From a virus, in the UHGV virus genome UHGV-0153572: DNA of 12,283 nucleotides; one strand, written 5' to 3'. This document shows, in pieces, positions 502-10,902 of this stretch. Numbering within the stretch: the stretch's first letter is position 1; every line of letters starts with the position of its first letter. The position numbers and the translations under genes are program-made. Under the pieces are notes generated by a model. The model saw only the letters and a program-made list of their open reading frames with translations, was not told where the DNA came from and made no database searches.

Positions 502-550
502 CGCATTCGTAATGCGAAGGTCGTAGGTTCGACTCCTATTATCGGCACCA
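502..550 (+). tRNA. Orphan 3' fragment (49 nt) of a tRNA-Thr(CGU) gene (thrW-type): anticodon arm, variable loop, T-arm, 3' acceptor strand and CCA; putative prophage att core, not a complete tRNA
   Basis: Sequence CGCATTCGTAATGCGAAGGTCGTAGGTTCGACTCCTATTATCGGCACCA matches, from memory, the 3' two-thirds of enterobacterial tRNA-Thr(CGU), including the GGTTCGACTCC T-arm and terminal CCA. The 27 nt upstream (475-501) do not match the 5' acceptor/D-arm, so no cloverleaf can form. Confidence 0.8.
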
Positions 551-564
551 TTTAAATCAATAAG

Positions 565-1728
565 TTACACATCATTAGTACCTTCCTTATTTTTTGACTG
601 GGACAAATTTGGGACCGATGGGTTCAGGATCGAGTCTATTTGCCGTGCGTGTTCGGTAAGGTGATTAGGTGCAAGGTGAGCATATCGACGAACCATTTCG
701 ATAGACTCCCACCCTCCCATTTCCTGTAACACTGACAACGGGACTCCGGCTTGAACCAGCCAACTTGCCCAGGTGTGTCTCAAGTCGTGAAATCTGAAAT
801 CATCAATACCAGCCCGTCTCAGCGCCGCTTTCCAGGCTGTGTTTGCGTCATACCGCATCTTCCTTACTGTTGGCGCTTTCGTTCCGTCTGGTTTGGTACA
901 GCTTTCCTTGTACACAAATACCCAACGGTGATGATTCCCGATTTGTTTTTTCAATACGCGACATGCAGTATCATTCAGCGCAACGCCAATTGCGCGGTTT
1001 GATTTACTCTCTTCCGGGTTTATCCATGCCACCCGGCGCTGCATATCTATTTGTTGCCATTCAAGGTTGATGATGTTCGAGCGTCTTAAACCTGTTGCCA
1101 GTGCAAATTCAACAACAGACTTTAATGGCTCCGGACATTCATCAATCAGCCTTTGTGCTTCATGGGGCTCCAGCCAGCGGATCCGTTTATTCTTTGGTTG
1201 AGGCACTTTAATAATTGGTGCCTTATCCAGCATTTTCCATTCACGCTCTGCGGCTCTTAGTAGGGCCTTTATAAATGAAAGATGCGTAGCCTTCGTTGCA
1301 ACGGACGCTGGTTTTGGCGTGTATTCTGGAACAGGTTTCCCTTTTTTTCTGCATGCTTCTGCCCTGAGTTTCCAGTTTTCCTCATGACGCCGGTTCGTCA
1401 TTTTCTGCATTGCTGAATAAATTTTTGATTCAGTAATGTCTCTTAGTTGCATTCCTGCGAAATGTTGAAGCCAGAATCCGATCCGGCTTTTGTCATCGTC
1501 CAGTGATTTTTTATGTGCTTTCTCTTCAAGCCACCTGACACACGCTTCCTCGAACGTTATATCAGGTATTTCACCAAGTTTGCTGACCCGCCATGCTTCA
1601 GCCTTTAGCTTGTCATGGAGTTCTGTCGCCTGCCTTTTGTCCTTTGTTCCAAGAGACTGTTTAAATCTTTTACCGTTCGGCAATGTGAAACTGGCGTACC
1701 ATATTTCACCTCTGCGGAAGAGTGACAT
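565..1728 (-). CDS. int: Site-specific tyrosine integrase, phage P22 Int-type (387 aa)
   Basis: 387-aa ORF with ATG at 1728..1726 preceded by an AGGAAAG/GAGG Shine-Dalgarno. C-terminal catalytic signature of tyrosine recombinases ([39 protein letters not shown], with R...HxxR...Y). Length and N-terminus ([24 protein letters not shown]) resemble P22 Int as remembered. Its 3' end lies 15 bp from the tRNA-Thr att core. Confidence 0.93.
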
Positions 1729-1955
1729 TTTCTTTCCTCTGTTATGCCATCACCCGCGCTCACCTGGACAGTATGCAGCGGAGACTGAAGAGCCGCAATG
1801 CAGGCTTGTCGTGTTGTGAGGTAAGGAGATTTATTCTTAGTGGGATCTTTGCGTGTTGCCTGAAGACGCCCTGTGCGTATCCAGTTAATGGCAGTCGGTC
1901 TGGATATCTTGAGAAAATGACAGGCCTCATCGAGTGTGAGGCTGTATGGCTCCAT
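1605..1955 (-). CDS. xis: Excisionase (Xis), helix-turn-helix excisionase family, 116 aa
   Basis: ATG at 1955..1953 with GAGGTG Shine-Dalgarno 6 nt upstream. N-terminus [33 protein letters not shown] fits the excisionase/AlpA-type HTH pattern. It overlaps the int start by ~120 nt, as in P22 xis-int. The ORF-track entry 1605..2039 is trimmed to the internal Met with an RBS. Confidence 0.75.
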
Positions 1956-2260
1956 TATTTCACCTCTTGCTGTGACATTGTTGAAAAATGGATACCAGCT
2001 CGTTGCTGCCAGACGATCCAACCGAGAGTCATATCCCATGCCATGTATTCGTTATCGCCGTTTTTTGCTCTCCGACGATCTACTAAGTCACCGAAACGCT
2101 TTTCCATGAATAATTCATAAGCTTCGCGTTCATCTGGTTCTACTTCCAGCGATAGGAGTGCGATTTCATAAGCACGGCGCTCAATATCGTCTCGCACGTC
2201 AAGGCTGCTGATACGCTCTTTAATTTCTTTAATCAGTTCTTTGTCGGTAAAAGTGATCAT
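1955..2260 (-). CDS. Hypothetical phage accessory protein (101 aa), acidic, no recognised domain
   Basis: ATG at 2260..2258. Its TAA stop (1957..1955) overlaps the xis ATG (TAATG), indicating translational coupling within the leftward operon. Sequence MITFTDKELIKEIKERISSLDVRDDIERRAYEIALL... Confidence 0.55.
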   Translation of the reverse strand: MITFTDKELIKEIKERISSLDVRDDIERRAYEIALLSLEVEPDEREAYELFMEKRFGDLVDRRRAKNGDNEYMAWDMTLGWIVWQQRAGIHFSTMSQQEVK

Positions 2261-2622
2261 TATGCTCCAGCCTCCGGTGCTTTTGGCATTATTGCCCAGT
2301 GAGTGATATTGACGTTTTCAAGGTCCCCGACCTGAAATGTCCACAGCCATTCTCCGGTTTCTTTTTGTCCCCAGGTGTACCAGAGAGAACGCCAGCCAAT
2401 TAGCCAGCCTTCTCCGTTAGCATCAAATAACAAAACACTTTCATTTGCTGGTGGCAGTTCAGCTGACACTGGTATTACTTTGTTTTCCTGTGCTGCACAT
2501 TTAGCTTCAAGCGCATCGAATTTACGCACCAGGTATTCAGCATCTGTTTCATTTACTTTCAGATCTCGCGGTACACATCTCCCACGAAGAAACCCTTCCA
2601 TTTCGAAAACATTCATGCGCAT
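2260..2622 (-). CDS. DUF551-like phage protein (118-120 aa)
   Basis: C-terminal Trp-rich block WLIGWRSLWYTWGQKETGEWLW...ITHWAIMPKAPE resembles the DUF551 signature (...THWMPLPEPP) common in lambdoid early-left regions. Candidate starts are ATG 2622 or ATG 2616; the latter overlaps the stop of the upstream HD gene (ATGA). Its stop overlaps the next gene's ATG (TAATG at 2258-2262). Confidence 0.6.
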   Translation of the reverse strand: MRMNVFEMEGFLRGRCVPRDLKVNETDAEYLVRKFDALEAKCAAQENKVIPVSAELPPANESVLLFDANGEGWLIGWRSLWYTWGQKETGEWLWTFQVGDLENVNITHWAIMPKAPEAGA

Positions 2623-3149
2623 TTGCGTAACTCCGATAACTCGTTAAAACGTTCCATAAACATCCCGTAGGCATGGCCCGGTGCCTGTGGAATCACTTTG
2701 AACATCTCTGTTGCCGGGATACCTTCCAGTACAGGCCAGAAAGAGCCATCATCAAGCCCGAGATCGCGGCGTTCGGTTGCCAGCATAATGAGATCGGCAT
2801 ATTTCACTGGCGTGCTCATAACAGGAGGTAACCCGTATTTCTCACGTATTACGGCGTCTATTTTTTCTTCCATCCGTTTATAGTCAGGAAGAAGTCGTTT
2901 CAGTGGTGCGGGGATGTCCTGGCAATATGCTTCTGTTGCATCATGCATTAAAGCTTCAAAAGCAAATTCCTGTGGCACCAGCTGGCTGCAAAGCACCGCA
3001 TGTTGGGCGACACTGTAGAAGTGTGAAAGATGTCCTGCAAAGCGACAGATATTTGAAAGGGAAACCGCGATATCGTTAATAACGATGTCGTCTTTATTTA
3101 TCCTGTCATAATAAAAATGCTTCCCGGAAAAAGTTTTAATAAATGACAT
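2613..3149 (-). CDS. HD-domain metal-dependent phosphohydrolase (178 aa from ATG 3149; the ORF extends to a GTG at 3176)
   Basis: H...HD motif context (VAQHAVLCSQ ... EALMHDATEAY) and later acidic residues typical of the HD phosphohydrolase superfamily. ATG 3149..3147 has a GGAGA Shine-Dalgarno 5 nt upstream; the longer ORF-track version starts at GTG 3176 without an obvious RBS. Confidence 0.7.
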   Translation of the reverse strand: MSFIKTFSGKHFYYDRINKDDIVINDIAVSLSNICRFAGHLSHFYSVAQHAVLCSQLVPQEFAFEALMHDATEAYCQDIPAPLKRLLPDYKRMEEKIDAVIREKYGLPPVMSTPVKYADLIMLATERRDLGLDDGSFWPVLEGIPATEMFKVIPQAPGHAYGMFMERFNELSELRKCA

Positions 3150-3273
3150 TTTGTTCTCCACGTATATGCGCTGCACCGCGCTGAATTCGGGTAAAAGGAA
3201 GCCCTCACCGTCCGGCGATTATTGAGTCAATTACATTTCCATAAATGCCCCCGTAGGGGCGGTTAGTTTCTCC

Positions 3274-3362
3274 ACAAAACAGAGAAGAACACCTGCGGTG
3301 GCAGCCGCCCGGATGGATTGGGTTATGAGCCCGTCGTCCGGTGATGCTCTTCTCTGTTTTGT
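3274..3362. repeat. 15-bp perfect inverted repeat (ACAAAACAGAGAAGA at 3274-3288; TCTTCTCTGTTTTGT at 3348-3362) with a 59-bp spacer, in the divergent intergenic region
   Basis: Direct reading: reverse complement of 3274-3288 equals 3348-3362 exactly. Lies between the leftward (int-proximal) and rightward operons. A GC-rich hairpin (GCCCC-CGTA-GGGGC, 3247-3260) lies just upstream. Confidence 0.6.
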
Positions 3363-3407
3363 AAAAAGGACGGTATCCGCCTGACGGCTAATCAGGCATA
3401 TCACCAG

Positions 3408-3611
3408 ATGGTGAAGCTGGGGATCGTCGAGCAGCGCGAACGATACAGCCGTACCGCGATTAACAACATCAAAAAATTCTGGTCGCTGACAGCGAAAGGC
3501 TGCATGTTCGGCAAGAACATCACCAGTCCTGCAAATCCGCGCGAGACGCAGCCGCATTTCTTCGAATCCCGATTCCCTGAGCTGTTAAAGCTGCTCGATA
3601 CCGTTCATTGA
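3408..3611 (+). CDS. Possible small hypothetical protein (67 aa); weak call
   Basis: ATG ORF ending 1 nt before the start of the next gene; amino-acid composition is more protein-like than the overlapping minus-strand 108-aa ORF. No strong RBS identified; could equally be non-coding regulatory sequence. Confidence 0.25.
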   Translation: MVKLGIVEQRERYSRTAINNIKKFWSLTAKGCMFGKNITSPANPRETQPHFFESRFPELLKLLDTVH

Positions 3612-3612
3612 G

Positions 3613-4608
3613 GTGACCGTGAGAGCACTACTGACCCCTGAAATAGCCCCGCGTATGGGGATCGTATTGTTCAGACCCGGTTCAGAGCTGATGCCCCTGT
3701 TTATGCAGGGGCGTGTCCTGCTGGAGCCTGAGCCGGAACGTTATTCATCTTTCGCCAGTGGTGCCGTTCCCGCGGCATCACAACCGCTGGCGGATGATCC
3801 TGCCGTTCGAGCCGTGTTCTGCAATGAGGCAGTGATCCGTCGTGCTGGTGGCGTGGAATGTCTTGAAAGCTGGTTACTTCGTGAAAAGGGCTGTCAGTGG
3901 CCTCATTCCGACTGGCACAGCGAGAACATGACCACAATGCGACACGCGCCGGGCGCGATCCGTCTGTGCTGGCACTGCGATAACCAGCTGCGCGATCAGT
4001 TCACGGAACGGCTGGAATCAATGGCAACGGATAACTGTGCCCGCTGGGTGTTGTCTGTTGTGCGTCGGGATCTCGGTTTTGATGACAGTCACGTTGTGAC
4101 AATGCCGGAACTGTGCTGGTGGCTGATTCGTAATGACCTGGCGGATGCCTTACCGGAAAGTGCAGCCCGTAAGGCACTGAGATTACCGAAGCCTGTTGTG
4201 CCGTCTGTCACCCGGGAAAGTGACCTTGTGCCTTCGGTTCCTGCCACCAGCATCATCCAGGATAAGGCGAAAAAGGTGCTGGCGCTGAAAGTGGATCCGG
4301 AGTCGCCGGAGTCTTTTATGTTACGCCCAAAACGTCGCCGCTGGGTTAATGAAAAGTACACGCGCTGGGTTAAGACACAGCCGTGTGCATGTTGTGGAAA
4401 GCCTGCTGATGATCCCCACCACCTGATAGGCCACGGTCAGGGTGGGATGGGTACAAAAGCGCATGACCTCTTTGTGTTGCCTTTGTGCAGAAAGCATCAC
4501 GACGAGCTGCATGCGGATACCGTGGCATTTGAAGAGAAGTATGGCTCCCAGCTGGAGCTGATATTTCGTTTTATCGATCGTGCGCTGGCAATAGGCGTAC
4601 TGGCGTAA
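3613..4608 (+). CDS. DUF968-like phage protein with C-terminal HNH/zinc-binding nuclease-like motif (~330 aa)
   Basis: C-terminal CACCGKPADDPHHLIGHGQGGMGTKAHDLFVLPLCRKHHDELH has Cys pairs and HH...H spacing like HNH-type modules. Overall architecture resembles the DUF968 (YdfU-type) proteins of lambdoid nin regions as remembered. Start is GTG 3613, or GTG 3619 with a GAGGTG Shine-Dalgarno. Confidence 0.7.
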   Translation: MTVRALLTPEIAPRMGIVLFRPGSELMPLFMQGRVLLEPEPERYSSFASGAVPAASQPLADDPAVRAVFCNEAVIRRAGGVECLESWLLREKGCQWPHSDWHSENMTTMRHAPGAIRLCWHCDNQLRDQFTERLESMATDNCARWVLSVVRRDLGFDDSHVVTMPELCWWLIRNDLADALPESAARKALRLPKPVVPSVTRESDLVPSVPATSIIQDKAKKVLALKVDPESPESFMLRPKRRRWVNEKYTRWVKTQPCACCGKPADDPHHLIGHGQGGMGTKAHDLFVLPLCRKHHDELHADTVAFEEKYGSQLELIFRFIDRALAIGVLA

Positions 4609-4621
4609 GTGGAGAACGAGC

Positions 4622-5350
4622 ATGAACCTTGAAGCTTTACCAAAATATTACTCCCCAAAATCTCCAAAATTGAGTGATGACGCACCGGCGACAGGCTCGG
4701 GTGGTTTAACAATTACAGATGTGATGGCTGCGCAGGGGATGGTGCAGTCGAAAGCACCGCTTGGGTTTGCCTTATTCCTGGCAAAAGTTGGTGTTCAGGA
4801 TCCTCAGTTTGCGATTGAAGGTCTGCTCAATTACGCGATGGCACTGGATAACCCGACATTGAACAAATTGAGTGAAGAAATCCGGTTACAGATCATCCCT
4901 TACCTTGTGAATTTTGCCTTTGCTGATTATTCCAGGTCTGCGGCAAGTAAGGCTCGCTGTGAGCATTGTGCTGGTACTGGATTTCATAATGTATTGCGCG
5001 AGGTGGTGAAACACTCCAGAAGCGGGGAATCTGTTATCAAGGAAGAGTGGGTGAAGGAACTATGTCAGCATTGTCATGGTAAGGGAGAAGTCAGCACAGC
5101 GTGCAGAGGGTGTAAGGGTAAAGGTATTGTCCTGGATGAAAAAAGGACCCGGCTTCATGGCACGCCTGTTTATAAGATTTGTGGGCGTTGCAATGGAAAC
5201 CGATTTAGCCGTTTACCAACCACACTGGCGCGGAATCATGTCCAGAAGCTGGTACCAGACCTGCCGAAGATCTGGGAAAAGTCACTTTCCGCCCGTCCAT
5301 CACGGCTTATGTGGTGGGAGATGACTGCTTTGACCAGCGCGATCGCCTGA
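4622..5350 (+). CDS. Phage antitermination protein Q-like protein with DnaJ-type zinc-finger repeats (242 aa); C-terminus possibly chimeric
   Basis: ATG 4622 with GGAGA Shine-Dalgarno. Four CxxCxGxG-type motifs (CEHCAGTG, CQHCHGKG, CRGCKGKG, CGRCNGNR; nt ~4958-5191). Resembles, from memory, the Q-type antiterminators of E. coli lambdoid prophages that sit next to a DUF968 gene. The last ~30 codons overlap, in another frame, DNA homologous to the DNA-circulation gene. Confidence 0.65.
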   Translation: MNLEALPKYYSPKSPKLSDDAPATGSGGLTITDVMAAQGMVQSKAPLGFALFLAKVGVQDPQFAIEGLLNYAMALDNPTLNKLSEEIRLQIIPYLVNFAFADYSRSAASKARCEHCAGTGFHNVLREVVKHSRSGESVIKEEWVKELCQHCHGKGEVSTACRGCKGKGIVLDEKRTRLHGTPVYKICGRCNGNRFSRLPTTLARNHVQKLVPDLPKIWEKSLSARPSRLMWWEMTALTSAIA

Positions 5351-6465
5351 TTGACGCGCTGAATAAACCCGGTCCCGGCACGCTTGTCCACCCGACATAC
5401 GGTGAGTTGAAAGTCTGTGTTGACGGGGAAGTTCGGGTCAGCACATCGAAGAGTGAAGGGCGTATTGTCCGCTTTGACCTGAAGTTTGTCGAAGCGGGAG
5501 ATCTCTCTTACCCCACATCAGGCGTGGCGACGGCGCAGACGCTGATGTCATCCTGTTCTGCACTGGATGACTGCATCAGTGACAGCTTCAGCGGTTTCAG
5601 TATCGATGGCGTGGCAGATTTTGTGCAGAACGACGTCGTCGGTAATGTCGGCACAATGCTTGGGTATGTTTCTGATGCGATGAAAGTGGTGGATTCTGCC
5701 GTATCGGATGCCGCCAGGCTGTTGCAGGGGGATATCTCGGTACTTCTTCCGCCGCCATCGTCAGGCAAAAATTTCGTTGAGCAGGTGCAGAAAATGTGGC
5801 GTACCGGGAAACGCCTTTATGGTAACGCCAGCGACCTGGTCACCATGATCAAAACGCTTTCCGGTGTCAGCCTTGGCAGCGATCTGCAACCGCGCGGCGT
5901 CTGGAAAACGGACAGTAAAACCACCGCCACGGCGACGCAGCAGCGTAACGTGGTTGCCAGCACCCTTCGTACGACCGCAATCAGCGAAGCGGCGTATGTC
6001 GTCACACGATTGCCTGCGCCCACAACTTCCGCGGTGATGCAGAATGCCACAGTGGGGCAGTCAACAACACCCGCGCAGAGCACCGGCTGGCCTTCTGTCA
6101 CGCATCCGGCACTGAACAATGCACCGGCGGTGAAAAACACGGTTGACCTGCCAACGTGGGAAGAACTGACCGACATTCGCGACACACTGAATACGGCAAT
6201 TGATAAGGAGTTGTCCCGTACAACCAGTGATGCGCTGTTTCTGGTGCTGCGCCGGGTGAAAGCAGATCTGAATGCGGATATCAACACGCGCCTTGAACAG
6301 TCTGCACGGATCATTCAGCGCACGCCGGATGAGGTTTTACCCGCGCTGGTGCTGGCGGCGACCTGGTTTGATAACGCGGCGCGTGACGCGGACATTATCC
6401 GGCGTAATGCCATTACGCATCCCGGCTTTGTGCCGGTGATCCCTCTGAAGGTGCCAGTGCAATGA
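5311..6465 (+). CDS. Mu-type DNA circulation protein (gpN family), N-terminally truncated; possible pseudogene
   Basis: Contains the family block AYVVGDDCFDQRDRLIDALNKPGPGTLVHPTYGELKV. The frame is open upstream only to 5209 (in-frame TAG at 5206-5208) and similarity begins around AEDLGK (~5263). The first possible start is GTG 5311 with no RBS, so ~45-60 N-terminal residues of a typical homologue are absent. Confidence 0.75.
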   Translation: MVGDDCFDQRDRLIDALNKPGPGTLVHPTYGELKVCVDGEVRVSTSKSEGRIVRFDLKFVEAGDLSYPTSGVATAQTLMSSCSALDDCISDSFSGFSIDGVADFVQNDVVGNVGTMLGYVSDAMKVVDSAVSDAARLLQGDISVLLPPPSSGKNFVEQVQKMWRTGKRLYGNASDLVTMIKTLSGVSLGSDLQPRGVWKTDSKTTATATQQRNVVASTLRTTAISEAAYVVTRLPAPTTSAVMQNATVGQSTTPAQSTGWPSVTHPALNNAPAVKNTVDLPTWEELTDIRDTLNTAIDKELSRTTSDALFLVLRRVKADLNADINTRLEQSARIIQRTPDEVLPALVLAATWFDNAARDADIIRRNAITHPGFVPVIPLKVPVQ

Positions 6466-7541
6466 ACGACAATGTCACGCTACGGGTAAATGGCCGGGAG
6501 TGGAATGGCTGGACATCGGTGCGCATCGGTGCCGGTATTGAACGGCTGGCGCGGGATTTCAGTGTGGAGATCACCCGCCAGTGGCCGGGAGATGAGGGTA
6601 TCACCACGCTTCAGCCGCGCATTAAAAACGGTTCAAAAGTGGAAGTGCTGATTGGTGATGAGCTGGTGATCACCGGCTGGGTGGAGGCGACGCCCGTTCG
6701 TTACGATGCCCGTTCGGTCAGCACCGGTATTGCCGGACGTAGTCTGACGGCTGACCTGATTGACTGTGCAGCCGAACCGACACAGTTTAACGGACGCTCG
6801 CTGGTGCAGATTGCGCAGGCGCTTGCTGCGCCTTTCGGCATTGAGGTGGTGAACAGCGGTGCGCCGTCGGGTGTTATTCCTGATGTTCAGCCTGATCACG
6901 GTGAAACGGTGATTGAGGTAATAAACAAAATACTCGGTCAGCAGCAGGCGCTGGCTTACGACGACCCGCACGGCAGGCTGGTGATTGGCGGTATTGGCTC
7001 AACGCGGGCACATACCGCGCTGGTACTTGGGGAAAACATCCTTTCCTGCGATACGGAGAAGAGTATCCGGGAGCGGTTTTCTGTTTACCAGGTGGCGGGG
7101 CAGCGTGCCGGAAACGACGATGATTTCGGTGAGGTCACCACCACCGCGCTGCGGGCCCGCACAGAGGACGCATTTATTGCCCGTTACCGTCCGATGTATA
7201 TCAGGCAGACAGGGCAGGCCACGGGGGCAGGCTGTATTGCGCGTGCTGACTTTGAAGCCCGACAACGGGCGGCGCGGACGGATGAAACCACCTATGTGGT
7301 GCAGGGCTGGCGACAGGGTAACGGTACGCTGTGGCAGCCCAACCAGCGGGTGATTGTCTTTGATCCGGTCTGTGGTTTCGACAATACCGAACTGCTTGTC
7401 TCGGAAGTCACGTTTACTCAGGACCAGAACGGCACCCTGACGGAAATCCGTGTCGGCCCGCCTGATGCTTATCTGCCTGAACCCGAAGCCCCCGGCGCGC
7501 GGAAAAAGAAAAAAGCCAGAGTACAGGAGGACCCGTTCTGA
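6462..7541 (+). CDS. Mu gpP-type tail/baseplate protein (phage late control D / baseplate hub family), 359 aa
   Basis: ATG 6462 overlaps the upstream stop (ATGA). Size, position directly after the DNA-circulation gene and sequence character fit the Mu P / P2 gpD family. Part of a tightly overlapping operon. Confidence 0.8.
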   Translation: MNDNVTLRVNGREWNGWTSVRIGAGIERLARDFSVEITRQWPGDEGITTLQPRIKNGSKVEVLIGDELVITGWVEATPVRYDARSVSTGIAGRSLTADLIDCAAEPTQFNGRSLVQIAQALAAPFGIEVVNSGAPSGVIPDVQPDHGETVIEVINKILGQQQALAYDDPHGRLVIGGIGSTRAHTALVLGENILSCDTEKSIRERFSVYQVAGQRAGNDDDFGEVTTTALRARTEDAFIARYRPMYIRQTGQATGAGCIARADFEARQRAARTDETTYVVQGWRQGNGTLWQPNQRVIVFDPVCGFDNTELLVSEVTFTQDQNGTLTEIRVGPPDAYLPEPEAPGARKKKKARVQEDPF

Positions 7542-8089
7542 TGAGGACGATTGAAGCCATGCAGCGACAACTTCTCGGCCTGATTGCGCGGGCAGTGGTG
7601 AAAAGCATCAGTGCCGCCACGAAATGTCAGACCGTGGATGTGTCCCTGATTGCCGGTGAACCCAAAGCCGGGGTTGAACATCTTGAACCCTACGGTTTTA
7701 CCGCAAGGGCAAACAGCGGCGCGGAAGCGGTGGTGTTGTTTCCGGATGGCGACCGTTCTCATGCGGTGGTTGTTACGGTGTCGGACCGGCGCTACCGCCT
7801 GAAAGGGTTGCAGACGGGTGAGGTGGCTGTCTATGACGATCAGGGGCAGTCTGTGACGCTGACCCGGGAGGGGATCGTGGTGGACGGTGCAGGTAAAACG
7901 ATCACGTTTCGCAATTCACCTAAAGCACGTTTTGAAATGGACCTGGAAGTGACAGGACAGGTGAAAGACCTGTGCGACTCCAGCGGCACTACCATGTCAG
8001 CGATGCGGCTTGCCTATAACGGGCATCGTCACAGAGAGAACGGTCAGGGCAGTAACACCGACAAACCGGATAAAGCGATGGAGGCATGA
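7541..8089 (+). CDS. Baseplate assembly protein V-type (Mu gp45-like spike protein), 182 aa
   Basis: ATG 7541 overlaps the upstream TGA (TGATG), with an AGGAGG Shine-Dalgarno. N-terminal region MRTIEAMQRQLLGLIARAVVKSI...GEPKAGVEHLEPYGFTARA is typical of the phage baseplate V family. Confidence 0.8.
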   Translation: MRTIEAMQRQLLGLIARAVVKSISAATKCQTVDVSLIAGEPKAGVEHLEPYGFTARANSGAEAVVLFPDGDRSHAVVVTVSDRRYRLKGLQTGEVAVYDDQGQSVTLTREGIVVDGAGKTITFRNSPKARFEMDLEVTGQVKDLCDSSGTTMSAMRLAYNGHRHRENGQGSNTDKPDKAMEA

Positions 8090-8514
8090 TGGAACTGTGG
8101 CTGACGGTGAACGGTAAACGCACCTGCGCCAGCGCACCGCTGGATCCGCTGACCCGCGCCGTGGTGATTTCCCTGTTTACCTGGCGGCGGGCGGAGCCTG
8201 ATGACAACGCCGACGTCCCGATGGGATGGTGGGGGGATACCTGGCCTGCGGTACAGAATGACCGTTACGGCTCCCGACTGTGGCTGCTTCAGCGCAGCAA
8301 ACTGACCAATCAGCTGGTGCAGACAGTAAGGGGGTATATCCGCGAATGCCTGCAATGGATGATTGATGACGGCGTGGTGTCCCGTATTGATCTGGATATC
8401 CGCCGCACCGGGATTAATGAGCTGGGTAACAGTATCACCCTCTGGCGTCGTGACGGACCGGTAATGATTTCTTTTGATGATCTGTGGAGTGCGATAACGC
8501 ATGGCGGACAGTGA
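8086..8514 (+). CDS. Phage GP46-family baseplate protein (Mu gp46 / gpW-like), 142 aa
   Basis: ATG 8086 overlaps the upstream stop, with a GGAGG Shine-Dalgarno. Small protein in the conserved position between the V-type and J-type baseplate genes. Confidence 0.8.
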   Translation: MMELWLTVNGKRTCASAPLDPLTRAVVISLFTWRRAEPDDNADVPMGWWGDTWPAVQNDRYGSRLWLLQRSKLTNQLVQTVRGYIRECLQWMIDDGVVSRIDLDIRRTGINELGNSITLWRRDGPVMISFDDLWSAITHGGQ

Positions 8515-9559
8515 ATTTCAGCGCCCGACGCTGGCAGAAAATATCAGTATGCTCCGTAACGATTTATTCGCCAGGCTGGACGTCAGCGACACGCTCCGGC
8601 GCATGGATGAAGACGTGCGGGCAAAGGTGTATGCGGCGGCGCTGCATACGGTTTACGGGTACATCGATTATCTGGCAATGAACATGCTGCCTGACCTGTG
8701 CGATGAGTCCTGGCTGGCGCGACATGCTGCGATGAAACGGTGTCCGCGCAAGGGGGCCACGGCTGCCAGCGGGTATATGCGTTGGGAAGGTGTCAGCGAT
8801 GGCCTGAAGGTGACCGCCGGGAGTGTTATTCAGCGCGATGACCTGGTTCAGTACACGGCAACTGCCGATGCAACCAGCTCCGGTGGTGTCCTGCGCGTGC
8901 CGATCGCCTGCTCAAGTGCAGGCGCGGTCGGTAACGCTGACGACGGTACGTCATTAATCCTGGTCACGCCGGTTAATGGTCTGCCGTCTTCCGGCGTGGC
9001 AGATACCCTTACAGGCGGATTTGATACTGAAGAGCTGGAAACGTGGCGCGCCCGCGTCATTGAGCGGTATTACTGGACGCCTCAGGGCGGGGCTGACGGG
9101 GACTATGTCGTCTGGGCTAAAGAAGTGCCCGGCATTACCCGCGCATGGACATACCGTCACTGGATGGGAACGGGAACTGTCGGTGTGATGATTGCCAGCA
9201 GTGACCTGATTAATCCCATTCCGGAAGAATCAACGGAAACGGCAGCAAGACAACATATCGGGCCACTGGCCCCGGTGGCAGGCTCTGATTTGTATGTATT
9301 CAGGCCGGTGGCACATACGGTGGATTTTCATATCCGCGTGACGCCGGACACACCGGAAATACGGGCTGCCATTACCGCGGAGTTGCGTTCGTTCCTGCTG
9401 CGTGATGGTTATCCGCAGGGAGAACTGAAGGTATCGCGTATCAGTGAGGCGATTTCCGGTGCGAACGGGGAATACAGCCATCAGTTGCTTGCACCGGTGG
9501 ACAATATCTCCATTGCGAAAAACGAACTGGCGGTACTGGGGACGATTTCATGGACGTGA
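8501..9559 (+). CDS. Baseplate J-like protein (Mu gp47 family), 352 aa
   Basis: ATG 8501, overlapping the upstream gene by 14 nt. Size and synteny (after gp46-like, before the DUF2313 gene) fit the Baseplate_J family. Confidence 0.8.
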
Positions 9560-10134
9560 CAAACGATGATTACATCCGCCTGTTATCGGCACTGTTGCCG
9601 CCCGGTCCGGCGTGGTCAGCCAGCGATCCGGCGATTGCCGGTGCGGCACCGTCATTAACCCGTGTTCATCAGCGTGCGGATGCCCTGATGCGGGAGCTGG
9701 ATCCGCGCACCACCACTGAACTGATAAACCGCTGGGAGCGTCTGTGCGGTCTGCCGGATGAATGTATTCCGGCGGGAACGCAGACCCTTCGCCAGCGTCA
9801 GCAACGGCTGGATGCGAAGGTTAACCTGGCGGGCGGCATCAACGAGGATTTTTATCTTGCACAGCTTGCTGCCCTGGGCAGACCAGATGCCACCATCACG
9901 CGATACGACAAAAGCACGTTCACCTGCTCATCGGCCTGTACTGACGCGGTGAATGCGCCGGAATGGCGGTATTACTGGCAGGTCAACATGCCAGCCGCCA
10001 CCAACACCACCTGGATGACATGTGGCGATCCCTGTGATTCCGCACTGCGTATCTGGGGTGACACCGTTGTCGAGTGTGTGCTTAACAAACTCTGCCCGTC
10101 GCATACCTACGTAATTTTTAAATATCCGGAGTAA
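9550..10134 (+). CDS. DUF2313 tail protein (Mu gp48 / P2 gpI-like; YmfQ-type), 194 aa
   Basis: ATG 9550, overlapping the upstream gene by 10 nt. N-terminus [22 protein letters not shown]... and the Cys-rich C-terminus resemble, from memory, the YmfQ/DUF2313 proteins encoded immediately upstream of tail-fibre genes. Confidence 0.8.
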
Positions 10135-10137
10135 TCC

Positions 10138-10902
10138 ATGCATCGTATAGACACGAAAACCGCGCAGAAGGATAAGTTCGGCGCGGGTAAGAACGGTTTT
10201 ACCCGTGGTAACCCCCAGACCGGCACGCCTGCCACCGATCTGGATGATGACTACTTTGACATGTTGCAGGAAGAGCTTTGTGGCGTGGTGGAGGCATCCG
10301 GTGCCAGCCTGGAGAAGGGGCGGCATGACCAGCTGCTTACCGCGCTTCGTGCGCTGCTGTTAAGCCGCAAGAATCCGTTTGGCGATATCAAATCGGATGG
10401 CACCGTGAAAACGGCTCTCGAAAACCTTGGTTTGGGAGAAGGTGCTCCAGCTATTGGCGTTCCGTTCTTCTGGCCGTCCGCTGCAATGCCAAATACTGTA
10501 ATCGACAGCTGGTCCGGTATGGTGTTTTTGAAGTTCAACGGCGCGAAATTCTCTGCCACTGATTACCCTGTGCTGGCGAAAGTGTTTCCTTCGCTGGTAT
10601 TACCTGAAGCCCGCGGTGATTTCATTCGTATCTGGGATAATGGTCGTGGTGTAGATAGTGGACGTGGATTACTTAGTACGCAGTCTGACCTGATGAAACA
10701 ATTTACTTTGCAATACTACGGTCCTTCTGCTGGTACTGGAACAAGAACGGTTTTCGCCCTCCAGAGTAATGCGAACGGCATATATACGAGTGGTATTAGT
10801 CAGAATGATGGTAGTGGCACCGCTGCGGCTTTTAATGTACCAGGCGGCACCGAAACACGCCCACGTAACATTGCATTCAACTTTTTAGTAAGGGCTAAAT
10901 AA
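10138..10902 (+). CDS. Tail fibre protein (S-type): conserved N-terminal baseplate-attachment region plus variable C-terminal receptor-binding region, 254 aa
   Basis: ATG 10138 with GGAG Shine-Dalgarno. N-terminus [55 protein letters not shown] is the conserved tail-fibre constant region. Codons ~93-101 ([10 protein letters not shown]) are encoded by a Hin/Gin-type crossover-like site. The AT-richer downstream part is the variable region. Confidence 0.85.
10415..10440. other. Candidate Hin/Gin/Cin/Pin-family DNA-invertase crossover site inside the tail-fibre gene
   Basis: CTCTCGAAAACC-TT-GGTTTGGGAGAA: 26 bp with near-symmetric 12-bp arms around a central dinucleotide. It matches the remembered hixL (TTCTTGAAAACCAAGGTTTTTGATAA) at 19/26 positions and shares the AAACC/GGTTT core with gix. 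It sits at the constant/variable junction of the fibre gene, as gix does in Mu S. Confidence 0.55.

Follow-up and report, generated by a model that had tools for sequence, protein, structure and literature searches.

A probable deletion scar in a defective SfV/e14-like prophage retains a conserved structured element, apparently an uncatalogued phage RNA motif

The decay of cryptic lambdoid prophages is known from elements of the e14, Qin, Rac and DLP12 type. A long RNA helix in a leftward int-containing transcript is known from lambda sib, an RNase III hairpin that lies beyond int/att. Phage transfer RNA (tRNA) clusters also carry tRNA-like small stable RNAs, of which the species 1 and 2 RNAs of T4 are examples. 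According to passages searched in a recent preprint, STnc100 and PasD are known prophage small RNAs (sRNAs) (bioRxiv 10.64898/2026.05.13.724894; Zhu, Shabalina and Storz), and those passages do not mention the three-way-junction element described below. Here we analyzed positions 3150 to 3612 of the virus genome UHGV-0153572, a stretch of 12,283 nucleotides (nt) that we call the window, in which an earlier note had seen a low-coding divergent control region around a 15-base-pair (bp) inverted repeat. We put at about 85% the probability that this region is a prophage deletion scar, and that the repeat is a native, conserved structured element which existed before the deletion and is not an operator.

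The window is a defective SfV/e14-like lambdoid Escherichia coli prophage at thrW with two internal deletions. A local blastn comparison with phage SfV gave four collinear blocks, in which window 505-3260 corresponds to SfV 20592-23347 (98% identity), 3249-3384 to SfV 24640-24775 (94%), 3363-5263 to SfV 31557-33457 (97.5%), and 5264-10441 to SfV 11797-16974 (97.8%). About 6.8 kilobases (kb) of SfV (24767-31569) are absent from the window. The lost interval holds the STnc100/DicF-like sRNA region, the early-left gene orf33, cI, the annotated operator region, cro, the replication genes, dam and rusA, and it also takes the first 187 codons of orf44, a KilA-N gene. The intact ECCHD184 prophage is 100% identical to the window over 3177-3365 and then continues into early-left genes, an XRE-type repressor gene, cro, ymfL and replication genes.

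Base-by-base comparison located the junction at 3372-3375. The left parent (ECCHD184) is matched identically up to 3375 and the right parent (SfV orf44) from 3372 onward, leaving a 4-bp GGTA microhomology common to both, which sits within an imperfect 12-bp similarity. At this point a truncated KilA-N gene meets an sRNA terminator interrupted within its 3' half. Intact relatives are collinear with each flank and carry between them the cI/cro/replication interval that is absent here, which bears out the deletion scar that the earlier note had listed among its options. Illegitimate recombination at the GGTA microhomology removed the ~6.8 kb and fused the leftward non-coding module tail-to-tail to the 3' end of the rightward KilA-N gene.

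The scar itself is ordinary, and automated annotation already calls the KilA-N remnant a pseudogene. As in the decay of cryptic lambdoid prophages, gene order stays collinear with SfV to the left and right of the junction, truncated genes lie end to end, no immunity or replication module is left, and a second large deletion has taken lysis, head and tail-shaft genes. The scar differs from that decay in being rare, with the junction present in only 2 of 5426 complete E. coli genomes (the set used for all genome counts here), and in lying within a prophage sRNA terminator, beside a large hairpin. The whole stretch 3100-3700 was found only in the complete chromosomes of strains E4 and TUM10008, at 100% identity, and parts of it in 3062 genomes. 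One hairpin contains the deletion endpoint, and the base of another is 10 bp away from it. Palindromes tend to promote slippage between short repeats, and by analogy the position of the endpoint would fit palindrome-promoted slippage.

A competing view is that the region is a residual immunity or operator-promoter region, with the repeat as an operator driving the divergent int and DUF968-Q blocks. The site does lie between divergently oriented gene blocks, and inverted repeats are typical of operators. However, comparison with the immunity region of SfV placed the true cI-operator-cro segment (25686-26651), with the operator region at 26377-26445, inside the deleted interval. A consensus scan of 2900-3900 found no sigma-70-like promoter on either strand; in the intact relative, a scan of this kind gave one weak plus-strand site. 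The window holds no open reading frame (ORF) or Pfam match of a repressor or cro-type helix-turn-helix protein such as flank a lambdoid immunity region, an absence that had been noticed before. In place of divergent sigma-70 promoters over closely spaced dyads there is a single inverted repeat with arms 59 bp apart. Moreover, the repeat is at least ~1 kb from cI in intact phages, Klebsiella phages carry a short-stem version in a different operon downstream of Q, and the strand-asymmetric G·U pattern described below is unexpected for a DNA site. We therefore consider an operator very unlikely here, and the control-region description does not stand. For annotation, the lesson is that what looks like a "control region" in a repressor-less prophage may be a deletion junction. 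The GGTAAAAGGA-like direct repeats reported at 3190-3200 and 3360-3370 also fell away: they match only with an indel and were not recovered in a repeat search, and the second copy is the complement of a terminator U-tract (CCUUUUU). We treat them as chance.

The inverted repeat itself is real. Its perfect 15-bp arms, ACAAAACAGAGAAGA (3274-3288) and TCTTCTCTGTTTTGT (3348-3362), are separated by 59 bp as first described, and the repeat extends to 25 nt at 84% complementarity. When 3150-3612 was shuffled 1000 times with dinucleotides preserved, no perfect inverted repeat exceeded 13 bp and the longest was usually 7-8 bp; an arm of 15 bp is therefore not a chance product. Nor was the repeat created by the deletion, because both arms are present, unchanged, in the intact phages SfV, SfII, SfIV, cdtI and mEp460 and in Stx2a and Stx2c phages.

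From the fold, compensatory pairs, a covariance model and its occurrence in more than 3000 E. coli genomes, we delimited an 89-nt three-way-junction element at 3274-3362 on the minus strand, whose outer helix is the inverted repeat. In the minus sense, 3343-3362 pairs with 3274-3293 to give an outer helix of 20 bp, which encloses arm A (3309-3341) and arm B (3295-3308). The flanks 3267-3273 and 3363-3369 add about five weak pairs, on the minus strand only, so that the predicted helix is 20-25 bp long. The minus-sense fold of 3262-3372 reached -51.2 kcal/mol (z = -7.0), and the whole "ymfH" region of intact relatives, named after the e14 gene annotated there, gave z = -5.8 on the minus strand versus z = -3.1 on the plus strand.

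The comparison of distinct variants showed that stem pair 11 is G-C in 25, A-U in 4 and C-G in 2 of them. At stem positions 16, 17 and 19, the bases would face each other as A·C or C·A on the plus strand and as G·U, U·G or Watson-Crick pairs on the minus strand, the latter in all 32 variants. Plus-strand mispairing affects 18 of these 32 at position 16 and 29 at position 19. On the basis of these compensatory changes and of the strand-specific G·U pattern, we place the structure on minus-strand RNA, the sense of the early-left operon. As regards the inverted repeat, the earlier suggestion of a structured small RNA was right in spirit, in that the element is structured, conserved and marked by compensatory changes.

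The pairing held up across genera. In an alignment of 34 sequences, 95.7% of the cells were paired, compared with 83.7% in shuffles (0 of 500 reached the observed value) and 29-47% in slid controls, and 8 pairs were changed on both sides. A covariance model built from this alignment scored the window copy at 77.5 bits (3287-3349, minus strand) and recovered the e14 and Citrobacter copies, which were outside the training set, at 45-47 bits (E ~1e-8 to 1e-9) and on one strand only. The shared architecture consists of an outer stem (20-25 bp in an "early" form, 6-7 bp in a "late" form), a 1-nt linker, arm A and a variable hairpin, arm B. Arm A has a 7-bp stem, an AC / AAUC internal element, a GGG/YCC stem and the loop CUCAUAA.

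The element is also widespread. The 117 bp of 3249-3365 were found in 3044 of the 5426 E. coli genomes, at a median of 2 places per genome, and homologues occur in Salmonella, Citrobacter, Klebsiella and Pantoea phages. An 18-mer scan of genome contigs gave 7 true matches (E. coli, Shigella and Citrobacter) along with chance matches. Pattern scans of viral contigs, with a core pattern that fixes AC, AAUC and most loop positions, gathered 72 distinct variants, and one viral contig holds both the long-stem and the short-stem form.

The loop of arm A, CUCAUAA (TTATGAG on the plus strand), lies at 3323-3329 on the minus strand and sits on a GGG/CCC stem, as judged from the variant set and from comparison with initiator tRNA-Met. 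It reads CUCAUAA in 68 of the 72 variants and CUCAUUA in the other 4, although the constancy of AC, AAUC and the loop within this set is partly by construction, because the collecting pattern fixed them. Copies outside the pattern differ; in e14 the loop is mutated to UUAAUAA. In E. coli copies the 14 nt CGGGCUCAUAACCC are identical to the anticodon stem-loop of the initiator tRNA-Met, including the 7-nt loop and its GGG/CCC stem; we checked the sequence of this tRNA in all 5426 genomes. CUCAUAA also fits the anticodon-loop form Y-U-NNN-R-N.

In phage records, a sensitive search also turned up the inner core in Klebsiella and Pantoea phages, at a different site. In the Klebsiella phages a short-stem copy lies directly 3' of tRNA-Asn or tRNA-Arg genes, downstream of Q and in the same orientation as the tRNAs. 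The short-stem copies are at 2477-2544 in both L146 and L147, at 2477-2545 in L149, and at 6060-6124 and 14614-14682 in L165. These late-type copies have a 6-7-bp acceptor-like stem that is nearly always followed by RCCA, an ending confined to them; the copy of the Pantoea phage PA-1 has no tRNA detected beside it and no RCCA. In their position after tRNA genes, their acceptor-like stem and their RCCA end, the late-type copies resemble the tRNA and tRNA-like small stable RNAs of phage clusters. Their acceptor end and loop seemed to resemble tRNA-Ile2(CAU), a likeness that we presume.

Several points weigh against a conserved minus-strand RNA with tRNA-like features. The 89-nt core folds equally well on both strands (mean -43.3 versus -42.5 kcal/mol), so folding of the two strands, which had been proposed as a check, was uninformative on the strand of the core: because the energies are equal, it is the wobble pattern that decides for the minus strand. 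In the cross-genus set, the 3' strand of the outer stem was chosen by best pairing, which favors that helix, and most of the double changes split two clades, long-stem "early" and short-stem "late", and thus represent few independent events. The strand, and the existence of an RNA at all, are read from the comparative pattern, and we infer RNase III processing and tRNA mimicry. ARAGORN made no tRNA call on the window copy or on those of Klebsiella, Pantoea and L165, and RF00005, the tRNA model of Rfam, did not match the element in the window or its relatives. Unlike tRNAs, the element has no D arm or T-loop consensus and a variable arm B, and the window copy carries a 20-25-bp outer helix and lacks a CCA end. 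An unrecognized promoter could still drive transcription through the scar. Finally, symmetric changes in both arms would also fit a symmetric DNA-binding protein.

This last point belongs to a broader alternative, in which the repeat acts as DNA, whether as a cruciform, a recombination hot spot, a symmetric protein-binding site or a miniature inverted-repeat transposable element. The perfect 15-bp arms would suit it, as would the location of the element at mosaic module boundaries and the deletion endpoint 10 bp from its base. Against this, pairing at positions 16, 17 and 19 depends on G·U and is confined to one strand, the inner arms co-vary too, and the outer helix drops to 7 bp in late-type copies around an invariant core, a pattern that a DNA palindrome would hardly produce. 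A symmetric DNA-binding protein would account for neither the strand-specific wobble nor this shrinkage of the outer helix. There is also no target-site duplication, and the constantly conserved flanks (GTTTCTCC...AAAAAGG) do not have a mobile look. We rejected a miniature inverted-repeat transposable element outright, as there is no flanking duplication and all long-stem copies have the same flanks and neighbors. Overall, a role as DNA seems improbable to us.

Another possibility accepts the structured RNA but assigns it to the plus strand, where it would be an antisense sRNA whose end lies in or close to the region of a small GC hairpin (3247-3260). The equal stability of the core is compatible with it, the GC hairpin and the GGTTAGTTTCT after it have a terminator-like score on the plus strand, and in two Citrobacter variants stem position 14 holds a G·T, which pairs on the plus strand only. 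On that strand, however, the GC hairpin is upstream of the repeat and cannot terminate it. The mispairing of positions 16 and 19 in 18 and 29 of the 32 variants and the minus-only pairing of the flanks speak for the other strand, as do the late-type copies, which run in the direction of the neighboring tRNA genes and have their RCCA in that orientation. The promoter scan of 2900-3900 gave no plus-strand site. A plus-strand origin thus has only a slim chance, and we retain the minus-strand assignment.

As far as we searched, the element is absent from catalogues. A search of the window and 9 related loci against Rfam 15 at permissive E-values gave no family for the hairpin, and only sub-threshold STnc100/DicF matches adjoining it. 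A full-text literature search with the arm and core sequences did not find the element, its matches being limited to papers on human miR-942, and the literature on ymfH, STnc100 and tRNA mimics provided the STnc100/PasD context and nothing on the element. On sequence grounds, the repeat is apparently a genuine, widespread and uncatalogued phage RNA motif, conserved in over half of complete E. coli genomes yet absent from Rfam 15.

We also considered whether the region encodes small proteins, from a ymfH-like ORF (3231-3557, minus strand) and/or an ORF at 3408-3611 (plus strand). The homologous e14 sequence of K-12 is indeed annotated as a protein, YmfH (e14 locus 2989-3300), and ORF 3408-3611 is in frame with a conserved protein. 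On closer comparison, ORF 3231-3557 crosses the junction and is a chimera, its 5' two thirds being antisense KilA-N sequence. The ymfH frame is frameshifted in close relatives and the ymfH ORF has no Pfam match. The 48 variable columns over the 32 distinct variants fall on codon phases as 22/23/19, with no third-position excess. The even spread over codon phases, the frameshifts and the lack of a Pfam match indicate that the element region is non-coding. YmfH overlaps both an STnc100-like match of 29 bits and the three-way-junction element, which its own covariance model scores at 47 bits there, and ymfH is probably not a protein gene. ORFs called across scars, such as 3231-3557, and YmfH in K-12 as well, are spurious, which is a further annotation lesson.

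ORF 3408-3611, in turn, is part of the 3' remnant of the KilA-N-family gene, a pseudogene at 3376-3611 on the plus strand that keeps the last 82 of 269 codons, counted from 3363. The remnant, in frame over 3372-3611, is identical to SfV Orf44 residues 188-269 at 79 of 82 amino acids (96%). The KilA-N domain occupies Orf44 residues 7-109 and is hence absent from the remnant, which the PGAP annotation lists as a pseudogene without its N-terminus. With no KilA-N domain and no identified promoter for ORF 3408-3611, and with the other frame broken, small proteins are a most implausible account of the region. The term "low-coding" accordingly holds for 3150-3371 and fails for 3372-3611, which is the in-frame 3' end of a conserved gene.

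What lies beside the element links it to an sRNA. The stretch 3363-3375 (minus strand), UACCGUCCUUUUU, comprises the 3' stem half and U-tract of the intrinsic terminator of a deleted STnc100/DicF-like sRNA, as seen in alignment with ECCHD184 and e14, and the Rfam STnc100 match of the intact relative ends at the equivalent of these positions. Directly upstream of the hairpin in the minus sense, STnc100 (RF02076) scores 43.4 bits in ECCHD184 (E = 5e-8; gathering threshold 47) and 29-35 bits, likewise sub-threshold, in e14 and ST64B. The Rfam search gave no STnc100 match in the window, where the sRNA is in the deleted part. The terminator hairpin of the STnc100-like sRNA resembles DicF (RF00039). 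The locus is thus like the STnc100/PasD/DicF module in that intact relatives carry a sub-threshold STnc100 sequence directly upstream of the hairpin. It is unlike that module in that the sRNA has been deleted here, with 13 nt of its terminator left, and the inverted-repeat element is outside the Rfam model.

In K-12 Qin, the interval 14270-14400 from dicF to dicB contains GTGGTGAATGCGGCTGAGCGCACGCGG...CACCTGGAGGCACCAGGCAC, in which, by eye, one can see a resemblance to the STnc100-like RNA of SfV-type phages in its 5' and central parts. The modules of DicF and of the STnc100-like RNAs may accordingly be neighbors or relatives. The three-way-junction element is absent from the dicF-dicB interval, and we therefore rejected the idea that the hairpin corresponds to Qin's RNase III site after dicF. 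Separately, on the minus strand at window 3369-3381, the junction recreates a small hairpin followed by the old U-tract (GGCGGAUACCGUC CUUUUU); its terminator-like score is probably accidental.

On the other side of the element is the GC stem-loop at 3247-3260, present as the earlier note had it, with a 5-bp stem (GCCCC CGTA GGGGC) and native to the leftward non-coding module. A small hairpin always follows the three-way-junction element, with variable sequence and a maintained stem, in e14, ST64B, F1055, Stx2c and Kp4866-6. When compared with the intrinsic-terminator consensus, 3246-3261 matches on the plus strand only, where there is no gene upstream. SfV has two similar GC hairpins (23336-23349 and 24640-24653) that flank orf31-orf32, the yfdQ module. 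Neither the window nor the intact ECCHD184 prophage carries that module, and each has a single GC hairpin. This arrangement suggests that recombination between the hairpins brought the module in or took it out, as is typical of a lambdoid mosaic boundary.

These surroundings suggest how the element might work. In intact phages it lies directly 3' of the sRNA's intrinsic terminator, and it would be made only in read-through or antiterminated transcripts. The late form would be transcribed by read-through of the tRNA cluster, that is, in lytic antiterminated transcription. An RNase III substrate spans about two turns, at least 20 bp of nearly uninterrupted double-stranded RNA, and on the minus strand the helix numbers 20 conserved pairs, rising to 25 when the flanks are counted. 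The predicted 20-25-bp helix has the size of such a substrate and most likely would act as a site of processing, or as an insulator, that separates the sRNA from the yfdR-xis-int message. Set beside the terminator consensus, the large hairpin has a 49-nt branched interior, and its U-rich 3' end is paired. Like lambda sib, the element has a long near-perfect RNA helix (at least 20 bp) in the leftward int transcript, would be made by read-through only, and appears suited to differential processing. Unlike sib, it is upstream of yfdR-xis-int, shares no sequence similarity with it, and its helix closes a three-way junction. In the window, the upstream sRNA, its promoter region and the immunity region have been lost, and for this reason the element is probably an intact but silent, untranscribed relic.

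The invariant CUCAUAA arm may in addition present a mimic of the tRNA(CAU) anticodon arm to some tRNA-recognizing factor. Combining these ideas gives a speculative proposal that we regard as doubtful in its entirety. It posits an undescribed structured-RNA family of temperate enterobacterial phages, built as a three-way junction whose anticodon arm is invariant and tRNA(CAU)-like (AC / GGG-CUCAUAA-YCC / AAUC), in which a long-stem form follows STnc100/DicF-like terminators and a short-stem RCCA form ends the tRNA cluster downstream of Q. The two would be processed from antiterminated lytic transcripts by RNase III and RNase P, respectively, and would then act as mimics of the tRNA-Met/Ile2 anticodon arm. 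Such a mimic, if true, might be a decoy for a host anticodon nuclease, for example the initiator-tRNA-cleaving VapC-type toxins, or a ligand of a tRNA(CAU)-recognizing enzyme. If the element functions as a mimic or a processing signal, it would bear on how temperate phages organize and process their non-coding transcripts, and possibly on how they handle host defenses that target tRNAs.

The genes around the region form divergently oriented blocks. The minus strand encodes a tyrosine integrase, an HTH_17 excisionase-like protein, yfdT, a DUF551 protein and the HD-domain protein yfdR; the plus strand encodes a DUF968/HNH protein, the Q antiterminator, a truncated Mu-N-like DNA circularization gene and Mu-type baseplate genes. 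The left edge of the region is yfdR (2613-3149, minus strand), the final gene of the leftward block, an HD-domain 5'-deoxynucleotidase-like gene identified by Pfam (YfbR-like/HD_3) and by PGAP in TUM10008, with 98% identity to SfV orf30. Its upstream leader (3150-3246, minus strand) is collinear with SfV 23237-23347 and identical to the intact ECCHD184 prophage. With a Shine-Dalgarno sequence, GGAGAA, directly ahead of the ATG at 3149, the leader is native and has undergone no rearrangement. The right edge is the DUF968/HNH gene of the ydfU family (3613-4608, plus strand; Pfam DUF968, E = 3.5e-81; also called by PGAP), the first intact gene of the rightward block.

The second scar lies at 5263/5264, where Q lacks its last 111 nt (its sequence stops at SfV 33457) and runs directly into nt 143 of the Mu-N-like circularization gene (SfV 11797). 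This junction has no microhomology, and about 15.4 kb are lost there, with the lysis, terminase, head, sheath, tube and tape-measure genes; PGAP lists both genes at the junction as pseudogenes. At the other end of the prophage, window ~501-550 contains just the 3' part of thrW (tRNA-Thr) with the P22/SfV attP core ATGCGAAGGTCGTAGGTTCGACT, beside int, and the 5' half is unrelated sequence. Rfam gave a sub-threshold tRNA match at 476-543, and ARAGORN called no tRNA there. In TUM10008, PGAP annotates a "tRNA-Ser" of 112 nt at the thrW site, with a second integrase on its other side, which suggests that two elements are integrated in tandem at this site.

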